NCBI GenBank assembly: GCA_964016885.1
Contig: OZ024740.1
Span: 184,636,001-184,700,000 of the forward strand
Reading direction: 5' to 3'
Origin: Eledone cirrhosa
Taxonomy: Eukaryota
Length of the DNA stretch: 64,000 nt
Each line of letters opens with the position of its first letter. Within the stretch, counting starts at the first letter, position 1. Positions 19,913-63,564 of the stretch are shown here, one piece after another. Both the position numbers and the translations under genes were made by a program. The notes under the pieces are model-generated. The model had not been told where the DNA came from. It worked only from the letters and a program-made list of their open reading frames with translations, and did no database searches.

Positions 19913-20898
19913 TAATAATAATAAATGTGAAGACTTAAATAGAGTGCTCAACCAAGGGAGCCAAATAGTAATAATAATAAATGTGAAGACTGCATGTATA
20001 TGCATGCATGGCAGGTGTTTTCGTGTATGCACGTGTATGTATGTATATAGATTCATATATGTATATATTTAATTATTATTACTTTTATGATTTTAATAAA
20101 CTGTGTCATTTTCGTTCTACTAATTTATTTACTTTATTCTTAACTCTGAAGCCGAGAACCATTCGGTTTCCTAAAATTAATATTAGTCTACGACTCCATT
20201 TATGCCATAAACGTGGTTTTGTCTTTGCATGTAATTGTTCTCATCGATCCATCTAACAACGTTTTGTGTTCGCTTTTTCCATTCATTGCCAGGGAACGTC
20301 TTCAAAAACCAAAGTATCATCTTCCTGTTTTCCTTCGGTTGCAACGTTTTTCGAAATATTTACTTTTGCGTTCACAGATTGATTTTTTTAGTTTCAAAAG
20401 ATCCCGTTAAGAGTGAAAGCAGCGATTCTTTGCTTAAACTTTAATCTGTTATTTTAATATATATATATATATATATATAATATATTTAGAAACACACAGA
20501 TACATGCCGACACACACATATACATGAATGCATCCACACCCAACCGTGAGTTAATGGTGCCAACCTTACCGATGTTGCTCAATGAATGACTGGGACAGAC
20601 CAATCCGGTTGAATTAGACTGGACCAGTATCAGAGTTAAAAATACATTATGAAGAGAGAAGAAACATTTAGATATAATTAGTAATAAAATGTATCATACC
20701 TAAACTGTTCCTAGATTCCTCGACTACGTAGTTTCGTGGCATAAACAAAAACAATACATCAATGGTATTTTCTTCGGGGTTATAAGAGGCTTAGCTCTGT
20801 TTCTCGACCGTTATATCGCGTGACTATCTCCCCCTCCGCCTTTTGGGATTCTTTCTCACGTCGTGTAGACGCGTTCTTGAAGCTAGTAAAATGAGGTA

Positions 20899-20988
20899 TC
20901 CTCTTGATAAGTCGGCAGACCTCGCAAGGACTCTATATCTTTATGATGTATTGTTTTTGTTTATGCCACGAAACTACGTAGTCGAGGA
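20899..20988 (+). ncRNA. Type I hammerhead ribozyme, U3-A8 core variant with long stem II insert
   Basis: tcctc-TTGATAA-gtcggca...tgccac-GAAA-c-tacgta-g-TC-gagga; predicted cleavage after 20983. Confidence 0.7.
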
Positions 20989-21491
20989 ATCTAGGAACAG
21001 TTTAGGTATGATACATTTTATTACTAATTATATCTAAATGTTTCTTCTCTCTTCATAATGTATTTTTAACTCTGATACTGGTCCAGTCTAATTCAACCGG
21101 ATTGGTCTGTCCCAGTCATTCATTGAGCAACATCGGTAAGGTTGGCACCATTAACTCACGGTTGGGTGTGGATGCATTCATGTATATGTGTATGTCTGCA
21201 TGTATCTGTGTGTTTCTAAATATATTGTTCATAACTCCCTCTGGTCGAGTAATCTTTGAAGTGTGGTGACTGCTGGAAAGCTGCCATTACTCATACTTCT
21301 CGCCCCCTTCACCACCTCTCCTACGGCTTCGATATAAATACCCCCTCCGCCTCCGTGGCATTTTCTTCGGGGTTATAAGAGGCTTAGCTCTGTTTCTCGA
21401 CCGTTATATCGCGTGACTATCTCCCCCTCCGCCTTTTGGGATTCTTTCTCACGTCGTGTAGACGCGTTCTTGAAGCTAGTAAAATGAGGTA

Positions 21492-21581
21492 TCCTCTTGA
21501 TAAGTCGGCAGACCTCGCAAGGACTCTATATCTTTATGATGTATTGTTTTTGTTTATGCCACGAAACTACGTAGTCGAGGA
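21492..21581 (+). ncRNA. Second identical hammerhead copy
   Basis: Same sequence shifted by 593 nt; GTC at 21574-21576. Confidence 0.7.
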
Positions 21582-21647
21582 ATCTAGGAACAGTTTAGGT
21601 ATGATACATTTTATTACTAATTATATCTAAATGTTTCTTCTCTCTTC

Positions 21648-21694
<47 letters not shown>

Positions 21695-21726: not shown

Positions 21727-21935
21727 AGGAAAAAGAAGTTGAAAATGCAATTGGAGTCTTTAAGAATGTTTATTTACAATAACTTGTAACTTTACCGGCT
21801 TCAAAGGTTTCATACTTTTCAAAAGGTAAGAGAGATAGAGATATGTGTAGCTATGCCATGAAGCCAGTAAAGTTACAATTTATTGTAAATAAACCTTCTT
21901 AATGACTCCGACTGCATTTTCACCTTCTTTTTCCT
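21727..21935. repeat. Imperfect ~77-bp inverted repeat between (TA)n tracts (probable PLE terminal fold-back)
   Basis: aggaaaaagaag..ggcttca (21727-21803) vs tgaagcc..ttctttttcct (21859-21935). Confidence 0.8.
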
Positions 21936-21984: not shown

Positions 21985-22720
21985 AGAAGACGTGCATAGA
22001 TTAGAAAGAAATGAAGCTTGCATGCTCCGATGGATGTGTAATCATTCGGTTTCCTAAATAGACTATTAGTCTACGACTCCATTTATGGCATAAACGTAAT
22101 AGTAATATATGCGAATGGTAAAGCATAAACGAATGGAGAGAGAGACTGAGCATAAGAGGAATCAAATGCTGTGCGAAGGAAAGGAGGTTGCATTGGTATG
22201 GACATGTGATGCGTATCAAGGATGACAGCTGCATAAAAAGGTACAGGGCACTAAAAGCCGATGGAAGCCGTGAAGTGGGGAGACCCAAGAAGAACTGGGA
22301 TGAGGTGATAAAAGCTGACCTTGCCTGATTGCACCTCTCAAATGCGATGACACAGGACCTTAACCTCTGGCGTCACGCAGTAATACAGAAGACCTGACAT
22401 CCCATTGATAAAAGCCGAAACTGAAGCATATAGACAATATGTCCCACCCTCTCCCACTGCAAAGTGGTCGTGGAGATGTCATGACAAAAAAACACCCAGC
22501 CCACACTGTAAAGTGGTCATGTAGGCGCCACAATAAAAAAGCACCCAGTACTCACTGTAAATGAGGTTGGTGTAAGGAAGGGCATCCAGCTGTAGAAATC
22601 AAGTCAAAATCAGTTCCGTAGGAGCCAGACATGGTCACCTGACCTGGCATTGCCCACAACAGGACAACCCATCTAACCCATGCTAGCATGGAAGAATGGA
22701 CGTAAAACAGTGATGATGAT
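21985..22720 (+). mobile_element. RTE family C 3' fragment containing a 53-bp templated insertion
   Basis: Collinear with 41245-41918 (RLERNEACML.WMC...RRLHWYGHVMR...VGRPKK.WDEVI) except for the insert at 22043-22095. Confidence 0.88.
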
Positions 22721-26959: not shown

Positions 26960-27105
26960 TCTCATTTCTACAGCTGAGTAAACTGGAGCAATGTGAAATA
27001 AAGTGTCTTGCTCAAGGAAACAACACATCACCCGGTGTGAGACTTGAACTCACAACCTTTTGATTGCAAGGCCAATGCTCTAACCACTAAGCCATGTGCC
27101 TCCAT
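26960..27105 (-). mobile_element. tRNA-derived CORE-like SINE, 5' part
   Basis: A box tggcttagtgg and B box gagttcaagtct, followed by ccttgagcaagacactt. Confidence 0.75.
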
Positions 27106-32033: not shown

Positions 32034-33692
32034 TTCGTTTAACGTCCACTTTCCACGCTAGCATGGGTTAGACGGGAGTTGTCCCACTGGAGGCAAGGTT
32101 TGGTCGGGTGACCGTGTCTCGCTTATATAGGACTATCTGGCAGGTTTTCTACAGCTGGATGCCCTTCCTAACACCAACCACATTTACAGTGTGGAACTGG
32201 AAAGTTTTTACCGTGTTACCTACAGGGCCACATTACAGCATGGACTGTGTGTTTTTTTCTCGTGACACCTACACGATCTCGATCTCATTATCTCATTTAT
32301 TTGGACAGGATGTTGTGGTACCAACTTTATAGAGAGAGGGTGGTGTTGGTGGGAGTGGGAGGATAGAGTAGCGGTAGGGGATTGGGGTGTATATTTGGTT
32401 AAGAGGTGCCTACTGACTGTAGGTTTCGCTTTGTACATCGGCAAGGCGGGTCTTCTGTATTACTGTGTAGTGCCAAAGATCTCGGTCCAGTGACATTGTC
32501 TTAGAAAGGTGCAAGTGTGTAAGGTCGGAATTTATCAGATCGTCCCAGGTTTTTCTGGGTCTACCTACTCCGTAACTAACATTAATTTTTATCTCCCTGC
32601 ACTTTTTTATACAGCTGTCATCTTTCATGCGCATCACATGGCCATACCAACGTAGTCTTCTCTCGAGTAAACAGCATCTGATCCCTCTTATTCCTAATTT
32701 CTCACTTAGTTCACCTATGCTTTGCCGTTCACGTATATTACTATTACACATCCAATGGAGCATGCATGCTTCGTTCCTTTCCAGTCTACGCAGGTCCTCT
32801 GCACGTAATGCCCATGTCTCACTGCCATGTAGCATTGCTGTTCGTATACAAGCATCATACAATCTGCCTTTCATTTTTAGAGAGAAACCGTTTGTAGCCA
32901 ACAGCGGTATAAGCTCTCTGAACTTTTTCCATCCCGTTCTGACTCTGGCTACTGTACTTTCAGAACACCCTCCACCACTGCTGATTTCATCACCCAGGTA
33001 ATGGAAAGTTTCTACTATTTCTATAGAACCATCTGGGCAATAGAAGGGGCTAGTATCCTGTGGACACTTGCTACCTATTGCACCTGAGCATCGGCCACAT
33101 ATAAAGTCTACGTTCTTAGATAGTTTTCCTGTGGCCCACTACATCTTTTATATGCGCATACTTTTCATTTGGGACTTAAAATTGAATTTCTGCCTACTCC
33201 TTTCCTACATACTGAGTAAGGCCATTTCCCTGAGGGTACCTGTGCCTTATTTTCCTTTCTACAAACTAGGACTTTAGTCTTAGGCAAGTTAACTTTAAGG
33301 AATTTTGATTCTAGGCCATGCTTCCATTTTGGGAATTTCTTTTCTAATTCAGCCATCGATTCAGCTATGAGCGTTAGATCATCTGCGTAAAGGAGTTCCC
33401 ATGGGCAGCCAGTCTTGAACTCCTCTGTTATGTCCTGTTAATTCTAACCTTACTGACTGTTTCATTATACATAGCTTTTATAGCTCTCACAAACCATTCA
33501 TCTACACCTAGTTTTCTAAGAGCCCACCAGATAATGGAGCGGGAGACTCTGTCAAAGGCTTTTTCCAGGTCTACAAAAGCTAAGTAGAGGGGTTTACTTT
33601 TAGCTAGGTACTTCTCTTGTAGTTGTCGTACAAGGAAAAGAGCGTCTGTGGTACTTTTACCTGTCACAAACCCAAACTGCATTTCATCTAGA
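32000..33692 (-). mobile_element. RTE family C, 5'-truncated (RT to 3' tail)
   Basis: MQFGFV.GKSTTDA.F.VRQLQEKY...YLAFVDLEKAFDRV, LLYADDL, MLHGSETW, RRLRWYGHVMR; (TGA)n tail at 32001-32033. Confidence 0.93.
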
Positions 33693-35497: not shown

Positions 35498-35883
35498 GGG
35501 CAGTGGATTGGTAGTATCGGTAGAGAGTCGGACGCCATTCTTTGAAGCATTGAGTTACGGCCCTTGCCATTCTGAGTTCAAATCCCACCAAGGTTAACTT
35601 TGCCTTTCATCCTTACGGGGTCGATAAAATAAAGTACCAGCAATACACTGGGTAATTGCTGGCCTTGTGCCAAAAAGTAGAAACAATTATATTACATTTT
35701 ACTGGCAGTATCGGTAGAGCGTCAGACACAATGCTTTGCAGCATAGAGTTATGGCTCTTTACATTTTGAGTTCAAATCCTGCCGAGGTTAATTTTGCCTT
35801 TCATCTTTACGGGGTCGATAAAATAAAGTACCAGTAATGCACTGGGTAATTGCTGGCCTTGTGACAAAAGTAGAAACAATTAT
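35498..35883 (+). mobile_element. Tandem pair of family-1 SINEs
   Basis: Copies at 35498-35691 and 35703-35883, plus a head stub at about 35457. Confidence 0.88.
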
Positions 35884-36126
35884 ATTATAGTATACTATAT
35901 TATATTATGTTATATTATTATATTTGATTTCATTACATTACATTTTATTGTATTATATTATAAATTTGTGTCAGAGCTCTGAAATAGTGATGTATATATG
36001 AATGTACATATTGTATATTTAATAATATACTGTATGTTTATTTTAAAACATTTTGAAGGTCTTTTACTATGAATTTAATGTAGCAACTATAGACACATAC
36101 CAAGCTTCAGCAAAAACAAAGGGAAA

Positions 36127-37860: not shown

Positions 37861-37875
37861 ATATATTATATTGAA

Positions 37876-38246
37876 TTGGCAGTATCAGTAGAGGGTCGGA
37901 CGCCATGCTTTCCAGCATAGTTATGTCCCTTTATGATCTGAGTTCAAATCCCATCGAGGTTAACTTTGCCTTTCATACTTACGGGGTTGATAAAATAAAG
38001 TGCCAGTAATGCTCTGGGATAATTGCTGGCCTTGTGCCAAAAGTAGAAACAATTATTAAAAGGGTCGTGGATTGGCAGTATCGGTAGAGGGTCGGATGCC
38101 ATGCTTTGCAGCATAGAGTTACAGCCCTTTGCGATCTGAGTTCAAATCCCAGCGAGGTTAACTTTGCCTTACGGGATCGATAAAATGAAGTACCAGTAAT
38201 ACACTGGGATAATTGCTGGCTTCGTGCCAAAAGCAGAAACAATTAT
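37876..38246 (+). mobile_element. Tandem pair of family-1 SINEs
   Basis: Copies at 37876-38057 and 38062-38246. Confidence 0.88.
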
Positions 38247-40764: not shown

Positions 40765-41918
40765 ACAAGACTAAGGTCGTTGTAAGTAGATAAGAAAACA
40801 GAACCCAGATCCCCTGAGGGAAATGGCCTTGCTCAGTATCTAGGAAAGGTGTAGGTAGGAACTCCATTCTCTGCCCCAAATGCAAACAATGGGTACACAA
40901 GAGATGTAGCGGGATCTCAGGAAGCTTAATTAAGAATGTAGGCTTCACATGTAGCAGCTGTGCTAACAGCCAGCAGCAAACAGCCACAGGAAACAAGTAC
41001 CACCAATCTCTGGGAGGGCTCTGTAGAAACAGTAGACAGCTTCTGCTACCTAGGTGACCGAATTAGCAGCGGAGGTGGGTGTTCAAAAAGTACAATAACT
41101 AGAGTAAGAATGGGATGGAAGAAGTTCAGGGAACTACTGCCACTGCTCGCTGCAAAAGGCTTCTCCCTCAAAATGAAAGGCAGACTGTATGATGCGTGTA
41201 TCCGAACAGCAATGTTACATGGTAGCGAGACCTGGGCGCTGAAGGTCGAAGACTTACGTAGATTAGAAAGAAACGAAGCCTGTATGCTCCCATGGATGTG
41301 TAATAGTAATATATGCGAATGGCAAAACATAGATGAATTGAGAGAGAGGCTGAGCATCAGAGGAATCAAATGCTGTGTGCAGGAGAGGCGGATGCATTGG
41401 TATGGACATGTGATGCGTATGAAGGATGACAGCTGCATAAAAAGGTGCAGAGCGCTAGAAGTCAATGGAAGCCACGGAGTAGGGAGACCCAAGAAGACCT
41501 GGGATGAGGTGATAGGGGCTGACCTTACCCAGTTACACCTCTCAAAGGCGATGACACACGACCGTGACCTCTGGCTTCACGCAGTAATACAGAGTACCCG
41601 ACCTCCCATGGGTACAAACTGCAGCATATAGACAACATGCCCCCACACCCTCCCACTGCAAAGTGGTCATGGAGGTGCCACGGCAAAAAAGCACCCAGCC
41701 CACACTGTAAAGTGGACGTGTAGGCACCACGGAAAAAAGCACCCAGCACTCACTGTAAATGAGGTTGGTGTTAGGAAGGGCATCCAGCTGTAGAAACCCA
41801 TCCAAAATCAGTTCCTGTATGAGCAAGGCTTGGTCAGCCGACCAGACACTGCCCACAACAGGACAACCTGTCTAACCCATGCTAGCATGGAAGAACAGAC
41901 GTAAAACGGTGAAGATGA
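40765..41918 (+). mobile_element. RTE family C 3' fragment
   Basis: WPCS...GVG.NSI.C..C..WVHKRC insert; ORF 40960-41631 FCYLGD...MLHGSETW...WYGHVMR...GRPKKTW. Confidence 0.93.
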
Positions 41919-54986: not shown

Positions 54987-55038
54987 TATATAGTGACGAA
55001 ACATAAGTCAATTGCATGAACTCTATAATCCTTTATTT

Positions 55039-55094
55039 ACTGCTATATATATTTCGATGATAGCCATTGAGTGGCTATGACCTCATCAGGCAGT
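55039..55094 (-). ncRNA. Canonical-core minimal hammerhead ribozyme
   Basis: actgc-CTGATGA-g-gtc-atagcca-ctcaa-tggctat-cat-c-GAAA-t-atat-a-TA-gcagt. Confidence 0.75.
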
Positions 55095-55197
55095 TAGTCA
55101 GTTCTTAGATATGCCAGCTCTGTGTTTATGGTGTTGATTGTATCAGAGCCTTGGGACATATGAGCTTGTTAGGAATAATTTAATGTTGTCATTATAT

Positions 55198-58338: not shown

Positions 58339-59246
58339 CGAGGTATGTCAGAAAGTTCCAGGACTGATGTCACAAAAGATTTATTTCAAGCCCAAACTTC
58401 ATACTAAGAGTTTTCTCCTTCAAATTAATCCCCCTGGAGTCTAATGCACTTTTCCATCCTTTTCTGCCACACTTGCATGCACTCCTGGAAGGATTCTCCC
58501 GGGATCCTCCACAGTCCCGTCGTTACGGCCTTTTTGATGTCATCCACATCTTCAAAACAGGTCCCCTCCGGGTCGTACTCGAAGATCCATGACTCATCAC
58601 CAGTGATGACTCTCCCTAGCAAGTCTGATTCGGTTTCAAGATGCTCGAGGATGTCCTGGCACACTTGCATGCGTCAACCCTTCTGGTCATCGTTCAGCAG
58701 TTTTGGCACCATCTTTGCGCAGACTTTCCGCATGTCCAAATCTTCAGTGAGAATCTTCCAGATGCTGTCCCTATTCATGCCCAGCTCATTTGCCATCAGT
58801 CGAACAGTCAGCCGACGATTGCTATGCACCATCTGCCTGATGCGCTCAATGTTGACCTCAGTCCTGGTTGTTGAGGGCCTTCCGCTCCTGGGGTTATCTT
58901 TCACGTCCTCACGTCCTTCTTTATCACTCAAAATCAACCTTCTTGCATCACTCAAAATCATGTGAGCATGACATCGTCTCATCTCTATACAGTTGCTGCT
59001 GACCATACAGTGCTTCTGACAGAGTTTTCAAGTTTGTTTGTTTCTCTGTGCTTATTGCTTGACGACCTGAAACAGAGGACATATATATAAAATTATGAAG
59101 AAAAAAGTTTAATCGCCGCAGAGAGCTAAGATTGCAGTTACATACTCAAGGGGGATTACTTTGAAGGAGAAAACTCTCAGTGTAAAGTTTGGGTTTGAAA
59201 TAAATCTTATGTGACATCAGTCCTGGAACTTTTCTGACACACCTCG
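58339..59246 (-). mobile_element. Internally deleted mariner element with ~100-bp terminal inverted repeats, inserted in (TA)n
   Basis: RSGRPST, RRLTVR.MA.ELG, KVCAKMVPKLL, VITGDESWIFEYDPE, W..R.EKCI..QGD; inverted repeats 58339-58440 and 59144-59246; TA flanks. Confidence 0.93.
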
Positions 59247-61574: not shown

Positions 61575-62499
61575 TTGGTATTGTTGCATCTGAGCTGATA
61601 TTTCCGTTTCTATTGCACCACCGAGAGACTAGATAATGTCTTTGGTTAAATCGTCTTCATCATTACAATGATTAATTGTCCTGCCTGAATTGACCATGAT
61701 TTTACTTCTTTCAAAGCGTTTATAAATTAACTACAATACAAATACTGAGGTCAATTTTAGTGACTTGTAGGCCAATCTCTCAAACTATGACATAGTTACC
61801 ATAGCTTTTGTTTACCCTCAAATCAATAATAACCAAGTAGGCATATGAAAGAAAGCTTTGTAGCTGAGACTAACCAGTTTCAGTTTATGGACATTGAGTA
61901 TTCAGGACAATTTTCCCTAAAACACTCTATATTAAAAAAAAAAAAAGTGTGAAGTCTGATTTATGAGAACTTAGCTGCTATTTAAAGAAGGTCATGCAGC
62001 TAAGTGCAGCCTTCCACTGTGATCTTATACAATTTGTTATAAATCAATATTATATATTAAGTAAACACTTCAGTCTATGTGTTAAAATAGAAGCATATTT
62101 GAATTCATCAATAATACTTCCAATAAAGAAAGTACATAACACTTAAATGAGTGCAAGTTATAACACTGGAAGCTAATTTTCCTTAACATGTCACTTTTGA
62201 TATAATTTCACATTTTTTATATATATTGAGATTTTGTTTCCTTGATTCTTATTCAAGATCTTATATTTTATTTTGTTTCTTTACAAAATTATTTAAACAT
62301 TTTGTCATTACATGTTAGATTTTTATACAATTTGTTTATTATGAATTAAAACAAATAAAATATAAAATTTATAGATATGTAAAAATACATAGACATGCAT
62401 ATACATATAAATGTAGCTATAAATATATCAGTCTATCTTTCTCTCTCTCTCTTTCCCTCTCTCTCTATATATATATATTCACAAGGACTCATGCCACCC

Positions 62500-63523
62500 T
62501 CCCACTGTTTTAGAAACTTTGTAAATAATATCAGTACTAGTATCTCAAACCTCTCCTCTAATAAGGCTATCTTTGACAGAGCGGTACCCTACTGTAACAC
62601 GGCGTTAGCTAACAGTGGCTTCTCGCAACCTATCACTTACTCTAACACTAACAAAAACAGCAATAAGAAAACAAAGCGTAACAATAGACAAACTATCTGG
62701 TTCTTTCCTCTCTTCTCACTCAACGTTAAAACCAATGTAGGCAAAAGATTTCTAGCCCTCTTAGATAGACACTTTCTGATAGGTCATAAATACTGTTCCA
62801 TCTTTAACCGAAACAAAGTAAAACTAGATACTCCTGCGCTAAGAACATGAAGTCTCACATCACCAACAGCCCTAAGAGCAACAACTCACCAGGGTGCACT
62901 TGCTGTAAGCCCAAAGCTTGACCCCTGCAACAGCAACACACCCGCTCAAATCAACCAAAGGAGGTCAAATCCTATGTGGGTATGGCGGAGGGCCGATTTA
63001 AGGAATGCTTCATGAACCACCAGTCGACGTTTAGGTACCCGGACAGACGTTCATCCACGAAACTCGCGAGCCATGTATGGTCCCTCAAGGACTCAAGTAT
63101 AGACTACTCCATTCAATGGAAAGCCATACATAAAGGGCAATCCGTCGTGTGGACTATGTATTGATGAATGAATAAATATTCTAAAGAGATTACGCAATAG
63201 CGATTGCCTAAACTCAAGGAATGAATTCTTCACACGTTGTCCACACGTCTGGAAACACCTCTTACAGAACTACAAAGTTCCGGATTGAATTACAACAACA
63301 TCCTAATTTTCTTATCAACTAGAAATTTTTGGACTTTTGCAGTTATCTCCCTTACACCTCTCGCACGCAATTTAGTATTGCCTGAGTGAAGTGACCATTT
63401 CTGCGAATGCGCGTTTGTACAGGTGTCCTTCCTGTTCCGTATAATCATGTCCATTACGAGCTGAGGATCCGGCAAGGTGAAACAATTGTTCTCAGTATGG
63501 TGAACTAACTGTTGTGTAACCAC

Positions 63524-63530
<7 letters not shown>
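62500..63530 (+). mobile_element. Penelope-like element 3' fragment (thumb, GIY-YIG, terminal repeat)
   Basis: IWF.P.FSLNVKTNVGKRFL.LLDRHF, IFNR.KVK..YSC..NM, CTC.KPKA*PL, YVGMAEGRFKE, CGLC..E, LNSRNE...RCPH; ends in (TA)n. Confidence 0.9.
63458..63493 (+). ncRNA. Minimal hammerhead in PLE terminal repeat
   Basis: gag-CTGAGGA-t-cc-ggcaa-gg-t-GAAA-c-aatt-g-TT-ctc. Confidence 0.6.

Positions 63531-63564
<34 letters not shown>

Follow-up and report, generated by a model that had tools for sequence, protein, structure and literature searches.

Metazoan non-LTR retrozymes have been described by Cervera and de la Pena 2020 (PMC7229834) and by Li, Clavereau and Pollet 2026 (bioRxiv 10.64898/2026.07.22.740005); in the available text of the latter, their movement is called unresolved and their link to Penelope-like elements (PLEs) is drawn from co-occurrence and pLTR similarity. 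According to the available text of PMC8557442, PLE insertions are composed of a partial tandem and an adjacent inverted 5'-truncated copy with a bias for (TA)n; Hydra elements prefer (TA)n, one of them with an attached inverted truncated copy, and microsatellites are also favoured by Naiad and Neptune elements. As far as the available text of PMC11167929 goes, when AT-rich DNA is offered to a purified PLE protein, both strands are nicked and extended, and synthesis starts inside the RNA at a site not homologous to the target. Hammerhead cleavage was unneeded in vitro in that study, uncut RNA being the chief substrate and hammerhead mutants still being inserted. Among hammerhead traits, the U3-A8 core is a published variant of Schistosoma PLEs, and a bulged helix II and a palindromic helix III are features of the D. 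virilis Penelope hammerhead (PMC4209133, available text). The non-LTR retrozyme class, its PLE origin, each of the ribozyme traits taken singly and non-autonomous tandem PLEs are already published. The literature listings and abstract openings searched contained neither the family described below nor any retrozyme whose insertion in (TA)n includes an inverted arm; supplements, Repbase and Dfam may hold the family. The available portions of the Octopus vulgaris repeat paper mention only Penelope families, and those of the giant squid genome paper only Penelope families and Rfam hammerheads.

The locus described here occupies positions 20479-21652 of the window, i.e. the whole 64-kb stretch of DNA that was analysed, which is from an animal genome, AT-rich and dense in transposons. 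It carries the PLE insertion signature of a partial tandem plus an adjacent inverted 5'-truncated copy (Table 1), and its family can be assigned with good confidence to a non-autonomous Penelope-dependent retrozyme type. An earlier note had reported a 593-nt unit present 1.5 times with 297-nt direct repeats and about one mismatch, a 283-nt inverted arm with about two mismatches, and (TA)n fused to both outer ends; the alignments agreed exactly. The direct repeats (20763-21059 and 21356-21652) have a period of 593 and one mismatch (20766/21359), the inverted arm (20479-20761) is the reverse complement of 20944-21226 over 283 nt with two mismatches, and (TA)n arrays detected with TRF (20457-20485 and 21651-21690) abut both outer ends, so that insertion into (TA)n of the Hydra/Naiad/Neptune type was found on either side. 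Compared with each other, the arms show 3 mismatches per 580 aligned positions, which suggests a fairly recent insertion of the locus copy; the near-identical arms, earlier read as a sign of recent activity, do not imply current activity. The inverted arm begins within stem II of the hammerhead motif and is therefore without a complete ribozyme. Its far end and that of the direct copy lie 243 and 76 nt beyond the predicted cut site (21226 minus 20983; 21652 minus 21576), as had been stated, and with genomic ends at these distances the description "ribozyme-bounded" had to be given up. Further copies of the unit were not found in the 64-kb window, and the head-to-head inversion junction was absent among the joints listed from public run contigs.

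Table 1. Coordinates of the element, its target and a nearby PLE in the 64-kb window.
Feature	Position	Strand	Basis or remark
(TA)n target, left	20457-20478		TRF array 20457-20485
Inverted 5'-truncated arm, unit positions 182-464	20479-20761	-	3' end toward left (TA)n
Head-to-head (5'-to-5') inversion junction, one extra base	20762-20763		Sequence comparison
Full 593-nt unit, 42.3% G+C, non-coding	20763-21355	+	Repeat alignment, family-wide cover
Type I hammerhead-like motif 1	20899-20988	+	Stem I 20899-20903/20984-20988, U3-A8 core 20904-20910, GAAA 20970-20973, palindromic stem III, predicted cut after 20983; descriptor, folding
A/T run, best (TA)n mimic, recurrent 3' end 21225-21229	21217-21229	+	Ranking, loose ends
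Spacer, 129 nt	21227-21355	+	Single here; other copies join both its sides (X4, X5)
TATA-like octamer	21333-21340	+	Dominant family form altered at 21336
Second partial copy, unit positions 1-297	21356-21652	+	Pseudo-LTR-like direct repeat; 3' end toward right (TA)n
Type I hammerhead-like motif 2	21492-21581	+	Core 21497-21503, GAAA 21563-21566, predicted cut after 21576
(TA)n target, right	21653-21690		TRF array 21651-21690
Broken PLE, Hydra-clade-type relatives	62480-63561	+	Hammerhead-like motif 63461 (canonical core), (TA)n at 3' end

Parts of the unit occur in 20 listed public sequencing runs from 16 studies. Four runs (X1, X4, X5 and X7; contigs, kind unrecorded) were mapped onto one permuted unit, 21060-21652, which was covered in 30/30 bins in X1, X4 and X5 and in 24/30 in X7. 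In X1, 1438 contigs were mapped with a summed depth of 57,000-485,000 over all 30 bins, against 7.6-20 for six of its eight listed pieces; summed depth is no copy number, and unitigs break at branches, where a rare attached coding body might be missed. The X1 depth suggests thousands of family copies. A 621-nt contig of X5 circles the entire unit (a 591-nt unit plus a 30-nt overlap) and closes a cycle, which is equally expected from tandem DNA and from a circle. The spacer is bridged on both sides by an X4 contig (21198-21364, depth 118) that is as deep as the rest; since the spacer and both junctions stand at family-level depth, the 593 period is family-wide and not a one-off deletion. Of the observations that the earlier note had named against itself, two, a single-copy sequence and a one-off deletion of a coding PLE, were looked for and neither was encountered: the unit recurs in 1438 X1 contigs with full cover in three of the four runs, and the spacer and junctions are family-wide. 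A head-to-tail arrangement is indicated by the 1.5 units at the locus, the closed 591-nt cycle and the X1 contigs; the joint that goes back by 593 was present in 4/4 runs, is partly built in by the choice of reference and is no proof of tandem order alone. Arrays with two or more complete units were not directly observed. The share of sequence continuing into unlike sequence was 0 in X1 and 0.07 in X4, though a rare coding body could go unnoticed in contigs this short. The dominant family form differs from the locus copy by about 5%.

X5 and X7 represent two other organism labels and carry the dominant alleles of organism A at a depth of 6-8; counting these two and 14 further ones, 0.10-0.30 of the unit words are present under 16 organism labels other than A. 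Dominant alleles under other labels could reflect related species, trace DNA or horizontal spread. At 21483 in X1, four contigs keep the hammerhead region while the upstream sequence has diverged, which suggests a second subfamily. RNA runs were absent among the listed holders of unit words, which has no bearing on expression.

The element was confirmed to have no credible open reading frame. The longest ATG-started frame of the multimer encodes 48 aa on the plus and 38 aa on the minus strand, no Pfam family was detected in the 6 element frames scanned, a tblastn search of 150 PLE-type proteins against the unit gave no match, and the RT plus GIY-YIG frame of an autonomous PLE was not found in the element. 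The TATA-like octamer TATAAATA, pointed out earlier, is present at 21333-21340 and is not conserved: position 21336 deviates in X5, in about half of X1 and, for X4, in 118/131 depth units. As the octamer is common, with 24 occurrences across the 64-kb window, and the dominant form departs from it at 21336, no promoter is supported, and the idea that a TATA box fixes where the forward tract begins was given up.

The hammerhead motif was read by hand as type I, with a U-A 3-8 pair replacing C-G. Stem I has 5 bp, stem II is bulged, carries 52 extra nt and is followed by GAAA, and stem III lies within a perfect 10-nt palindrome (dimer type). A hammerhead in each direct copy had been claimed, and both the motif and the predicted cut sites after 20983/21576 stood; the core is non-canonical, Rfam reported no hammerhead in the element at the gathering score or at E<=10, and the canonical CTGANGA pattern had no match there. 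A variant descriptor was composed after the motif had been seen, with stem II allowed to be long and positions 3 and 8 free to form any Watson-Crick pair. It matched each direct copy exactly once (core at 20904/21497, cut predicted after 20983/21576), the minus strand 0 times and 0/5000 dinucleotide shuffles of the unit, a generous null for a post hoc descriptor. The hammerhead fold is predicted to lie 1.1 kcal/mol over the local minimum and to make up about 3% of the local ensemble. In predictions for the 1.5-mer, the double-hammerhead fold gains 7.4 kcal/mol in stability over two monomer folds but is less stable than the minimum by 6.8 kcal/mol. When the motif was folded freely by itself, z was not significant; the whole monomer folds better than its shuffles (z -3.95).

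Across the four runs, none of the 36 listed family substitutions touches the core or the proximal stems (44 positions; chance 0.06), so U3-A8 is taken as the family state; a reversion to the canonical CUGANGA core was not listed in any of these runs. The motif-bearing segment is less variable than the remainder (7/297 vs 23/296, Fisher p 0.003; 30/36 sites used), and one dominant variant turns a G-U of the extended stem II into A-U. For the monomer fold, covariation was assessed with 30/36 listed substitutions, 6 minor alleles being left out; 11/20 predicted pairs are kept and 9/20 broken by family variants, and a conserved global RNA structure is not supported. The motif is judged, from folding and comparison, to be real and of dimer type, and self-cleavage is predicted only. 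Exact motif scans of metagenome and viral contigs returned 0 matches; 50 metagenome loci found with a looser pattern were put down to chance, as 0/50 had stem III with stem I closure and no alignment exceeded 22 nt.

The 3' loose ends that continue into (TA)n form four rows, all at 21225-21229 (X1, X4 and X7; among the best 18 of 90), and the (TA)n end of X7 closes a 450-nt alignment on a contig spanning unit positions 16 to 464. The 3' end of the inverted arm coincides with this recurrent end, whose site is the best (TA)n mimic, rank 1 of the 593 unit positions. The right end at 21652 lies in a weaker A/T run, where the mapping reference also stopped. The two locus ends are 167 nt apart in the unit, and a 30-40-nt PLE tail was unseen among the best 18/90 loose ends. 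The "variable end points" of the earlier reading were accordingly not borne out, the 3' end recurring at 21225-21229 in 3/4 runs at the same place as in the inverted arm: insertion ends are neither freely permuted nor set by the ribozyme. Recurrent ends may result from microhomology priming or be inherited from donor copies already ending there. At family-variable sites the inverted arm and the forward copy share 12/14 locus alleles and the direct repeats 6/7, and the sequence comparison across the three arms points to one template variant.

A candidate for the kind of helper lies about 41 kb from the element. At 62497-63285, a broken 5'-truncated frame matches proteins of about 700 aa (E 1e-36). 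By eye, these relatives show RT motifs, RWK/RWR, DKT/DKS and CxCX5C, which are marks of Hydra-clade PLEs in the available text of PMC8557442; the PLE assignment of the relatives rests on these motifs by eye, as Pfam and PDB did not name them. A protein search with an endonuclease-like fragment returned nothing, and Atlas gave no hit. DNA shared between the unit and the PLE at 62497-63505 was not found in the 64-kb window, nor was an autonomous PLE with the terminal sequence of the unit, and on sequence grounds this PLE is likely the kind of helper and not the partner. When 8 unit motifs were compared with the Naiad, Hydra and Chlamys consensus files of Craig 2021, 0 hits were obtained, in files whose line breaks can hide hits. 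Stem III of the unit resembles, in a comparison by eye, Hydra-clade motifs in the available part of the PMC8557442 supplement.

Other features of the window were recorded alongside. Two (TA)n arrays enclose 200 nt (54993-55192, minus strand) with a hammerhead-like motif at 55089; its core is canonical, stem II contains a 6-bp hairpin, and stem III alternates between A and T. This stretch has no similarity to the unit and is probably an isolated pseudo-LTR fragment from a different PLE family. The element itself is flanked by a 58-nt repeat (20157-20214 and 22040-22097, 90% alike), the minus strand of which resembles, by eye, a hammerhead in loose outline, its core being unusual. To the right of the element, near a short (TA)n, an older inverted pair (21727-21935; 77-nt arms, 91% complementary) may be another PLE-type inverted remnant. 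The sole Rfam hit in the window is tRNA-like (27037-27094, minus strand) and probably a SINE head; SINE-like tandem repeats of 190-194 nt are present at 35509-35887 and 37875-38246. Coding fragments at 32410-33138, 40942-41631, 22122-22328 and 58674-59027 comprise LINE-like pieces and a transposase-type HTH fragment (PF13565); Pfam had no hit for the one LINE-like fragment scanned, and we take the LINE-like pieces to be RTE-like.

The reading preferred here, to which we would give about an even chance, is that the locus is an insertion from an abundant non-coding head-to-tail family of 591-593-nt units, likely copied by a PLE in trans and probably from uncut RNA. Tandem source arrays would be transcribed into longer-than-unit RNA, and a helper targeting (TA)n, for which the Hydra clade is the best candidate, would nick both strands. 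Each DNA end would then prime internally on the RNA at an A/U-rich site, the left end at the preferred site near unit position 463 and the right end at a weaker site near 297, and the two cDNAs, of 283 and 890 nt, would join head to head. The ribozyme would act slowly as a dimer, turning multimers into monomers and perhaps circles, and cleavage would not set the insertion ends.

Because the forward tract spans two intact cut sites, the template was either an uncut multimer or a religated circle, and the uncut multimer is placed only slightly ahead. That the same family and helper worked instead from a 591-593-nt RNA circle, made by double hammerhead cleavage and ligation and copied for 1.5 rounds, is possible, though we would not expect it. 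Metazoan retrozymes accumulate as circles (PMC7229834, available text), a circle model was proposed for PLE tandems (PMC4209133, likewise), and the well-folding monomer (z -3.95), the closed cyclic contig in X5 and the locus alleles shared by three arms (12/14, 6/7) where the dominant family differs by about 5% all fit it. A homogenised tandem donor, however, yields equal allele sharing and a cyclic contig, and the kind of run behind X5 is unrecorded; the ribozyme fold is predicted to be weak, mainly uncut RNA is used by a PLE in vitro (PMC11167929, available text), and 8/9 Xenopus retrozyme dimers were uncleaved in vitro (bioRxiv 10.64898/2026.07.22.740005, available text). Since a PLE RT starts internally on uncut RNA in the in vitro work available from PMC11167929, a circle is not required; of the earlier interpretation, the retrozyme-like character, (TA)n target, PLE layout and non-coding nature are kept, and the circle as template becomes optional. 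A fuller proposal is doubtful, namely that a family of likely thousands of copies has an active, circle-making U3-A8 ribozyme and that its circles are copied by a Hydra-clade PLE which targets (TA)n and always starts at one A/U-rich site within the unit. If this holds, each insertion would record directly in the genome that PLEs mobilise retrozymes, and recent spread between species could account for the near-identical form found under other organism labels.

Three further explanations are less probable still. The arms could be truncated pseudo-LTR fragments of a coding PLE, with a 593 period that is accidental or an old deletion amplified as a DNA satellite. The recurrent end at unit positions 463-467 could then be a true PLE 3' terminus, as could be the case on the X7 contig that runs from unit position 16 to 464 and into (TA)n; single long unlike loose ends (X1 at 21391, X4 at 21598) are also in keeping with it, and Li 2026 derives retrozymes from pLTRs and allows local tandem amplification (bioRxiv 10.64898/2026.07.22.740005, available text). 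This is nevertheless unlikely, as the spacer and both junctions stand at family depth, one contig closes the cycle, the unit lacks similarity to 150 PLE proteins, and an inverted arm with (TA)n at both ends points to retrotransposition of that very arrangement. It is very unlikely that the hammerhead is a dead relic in a plain spreading non-autonomous PLE, the motif being at most a protein-binding structure: the 3-8 pair is altered on both sides yet Watson-Crick, the 44 critical positions are without a listed variant (chance 0.06), the motif segment is less variable (7/297 vs 23/296, Fisher p 0.003), and one dominant variant replaces a G-U of the extended stem II by A-U. Against these stand the non-canonical core, the long stem II, an active fold above the minimum, the insertion of hammerhead mutants in vitro (PMC11167929, available text) and Naiads that spread without canonical hammerheads (PMC8557442, available text). 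Least probable of all, and barely to be entertained, is an inversion and 1.5-mer created by misassembly of a high-copy repeat; the inversion junction is indeed missing among the listed joints of public run contigs, but three sites distinguish the arms and at two of them the family-majority base is found in one arm, the layout is the standard PLE product (PMC8557442, available text), and the unit and its preferred end recur in independent runs.

Two described systems were rejected as models. Viroid-like symmetric rolling-circle RNA does not agree with a plus-strand motif only, a branched fold and 9/20 broken predicted pairs. A plant LTR retrozyme needs, in the available text of bioRxiv 10.64898/2026.07.22.740005, a type III hammerhead, true LTRs, PBS/PPT and a 4-bp TSD; the motif of the unit is type I, and the element has an inverted arm and is fused to (TA)n at its ends.

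A non-coding unit with the full PLE signature and a fixed 3' end makes mobility testable by copy counts within one genome, which address circle versus uncut multimer, cut site versus internal start, and the helper clade. An abundant ribozyme family can also escape CUGANGA-based searches and Rfam, and retrozyme counts may in consequence be low.

Compared with metazoan non-LTR retrozymes, as far as their published descriptions are available here, the unit is likewise a non-coding tandem unit with one type I hammerhead per unit in a single polarity, a G+C under 45% (42.3%) and a proposed PLE dependence. Its 593 nt fall within the 51-972 bp range of Li 2026 (bioRxiv 10.64898/2026.07.22.740005) and exceed the 170-400 nt of invertebrate retrozyme units. 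All sequence features of a non-LTR retrozyme were found except the canonical CUGANGA core, cleavage and circles being predicted only; with its U3-A8 core and long stem II, the unit would probably be missed by the CUGANGA descriptors used for retrozymes. The inverted arm and the (TA)n junctions of its insertion are not described for retrozymes in the text compared. Unlike the PLE studied in vitro, whose RT start is non-homologous to the target in the available text of PMC11167929, the unit has a recurrent end that mimics (TA)n.

With Hydra-clade PLEs, as covered by the available text of PMC8557442, the unit shares the (TA)n target, an inverted 5'-truncated copy beside a partial tandem and a type I hammerhead with palindromic stem III; these PLEs differ in having an RT-endonuclease frame and tabulated motifs that all have a C3 core and a short loop 2, no sequence shared with the unit was found, and their 30-40-nt tail was unseen at the locus. 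Non-autonomous Chlamys PLEs such as MRC1 (same source and extent) are also non-coding, pLTR-forming, multicopy, head-to-tail and moved in trans; they differ in belonging to a green alga, in being mostly without hammerheads and in having 3' sequence in common with an autonomous family. The ribozyme itself is closest to those of Schistosoma mansoni Cercyon (U3-A8) and Drosophila virilis Penelope, with which it shares core covariation, the bulge and a dimer-type stem III (PMC4209133, available text). The Cercyon and Penelope motifs are mostly single and located in the pLTRs of coding or truncated PLEs, whereas here the traits occur together, along with a 52-nt extension, in one non-coding unit of a tandem.
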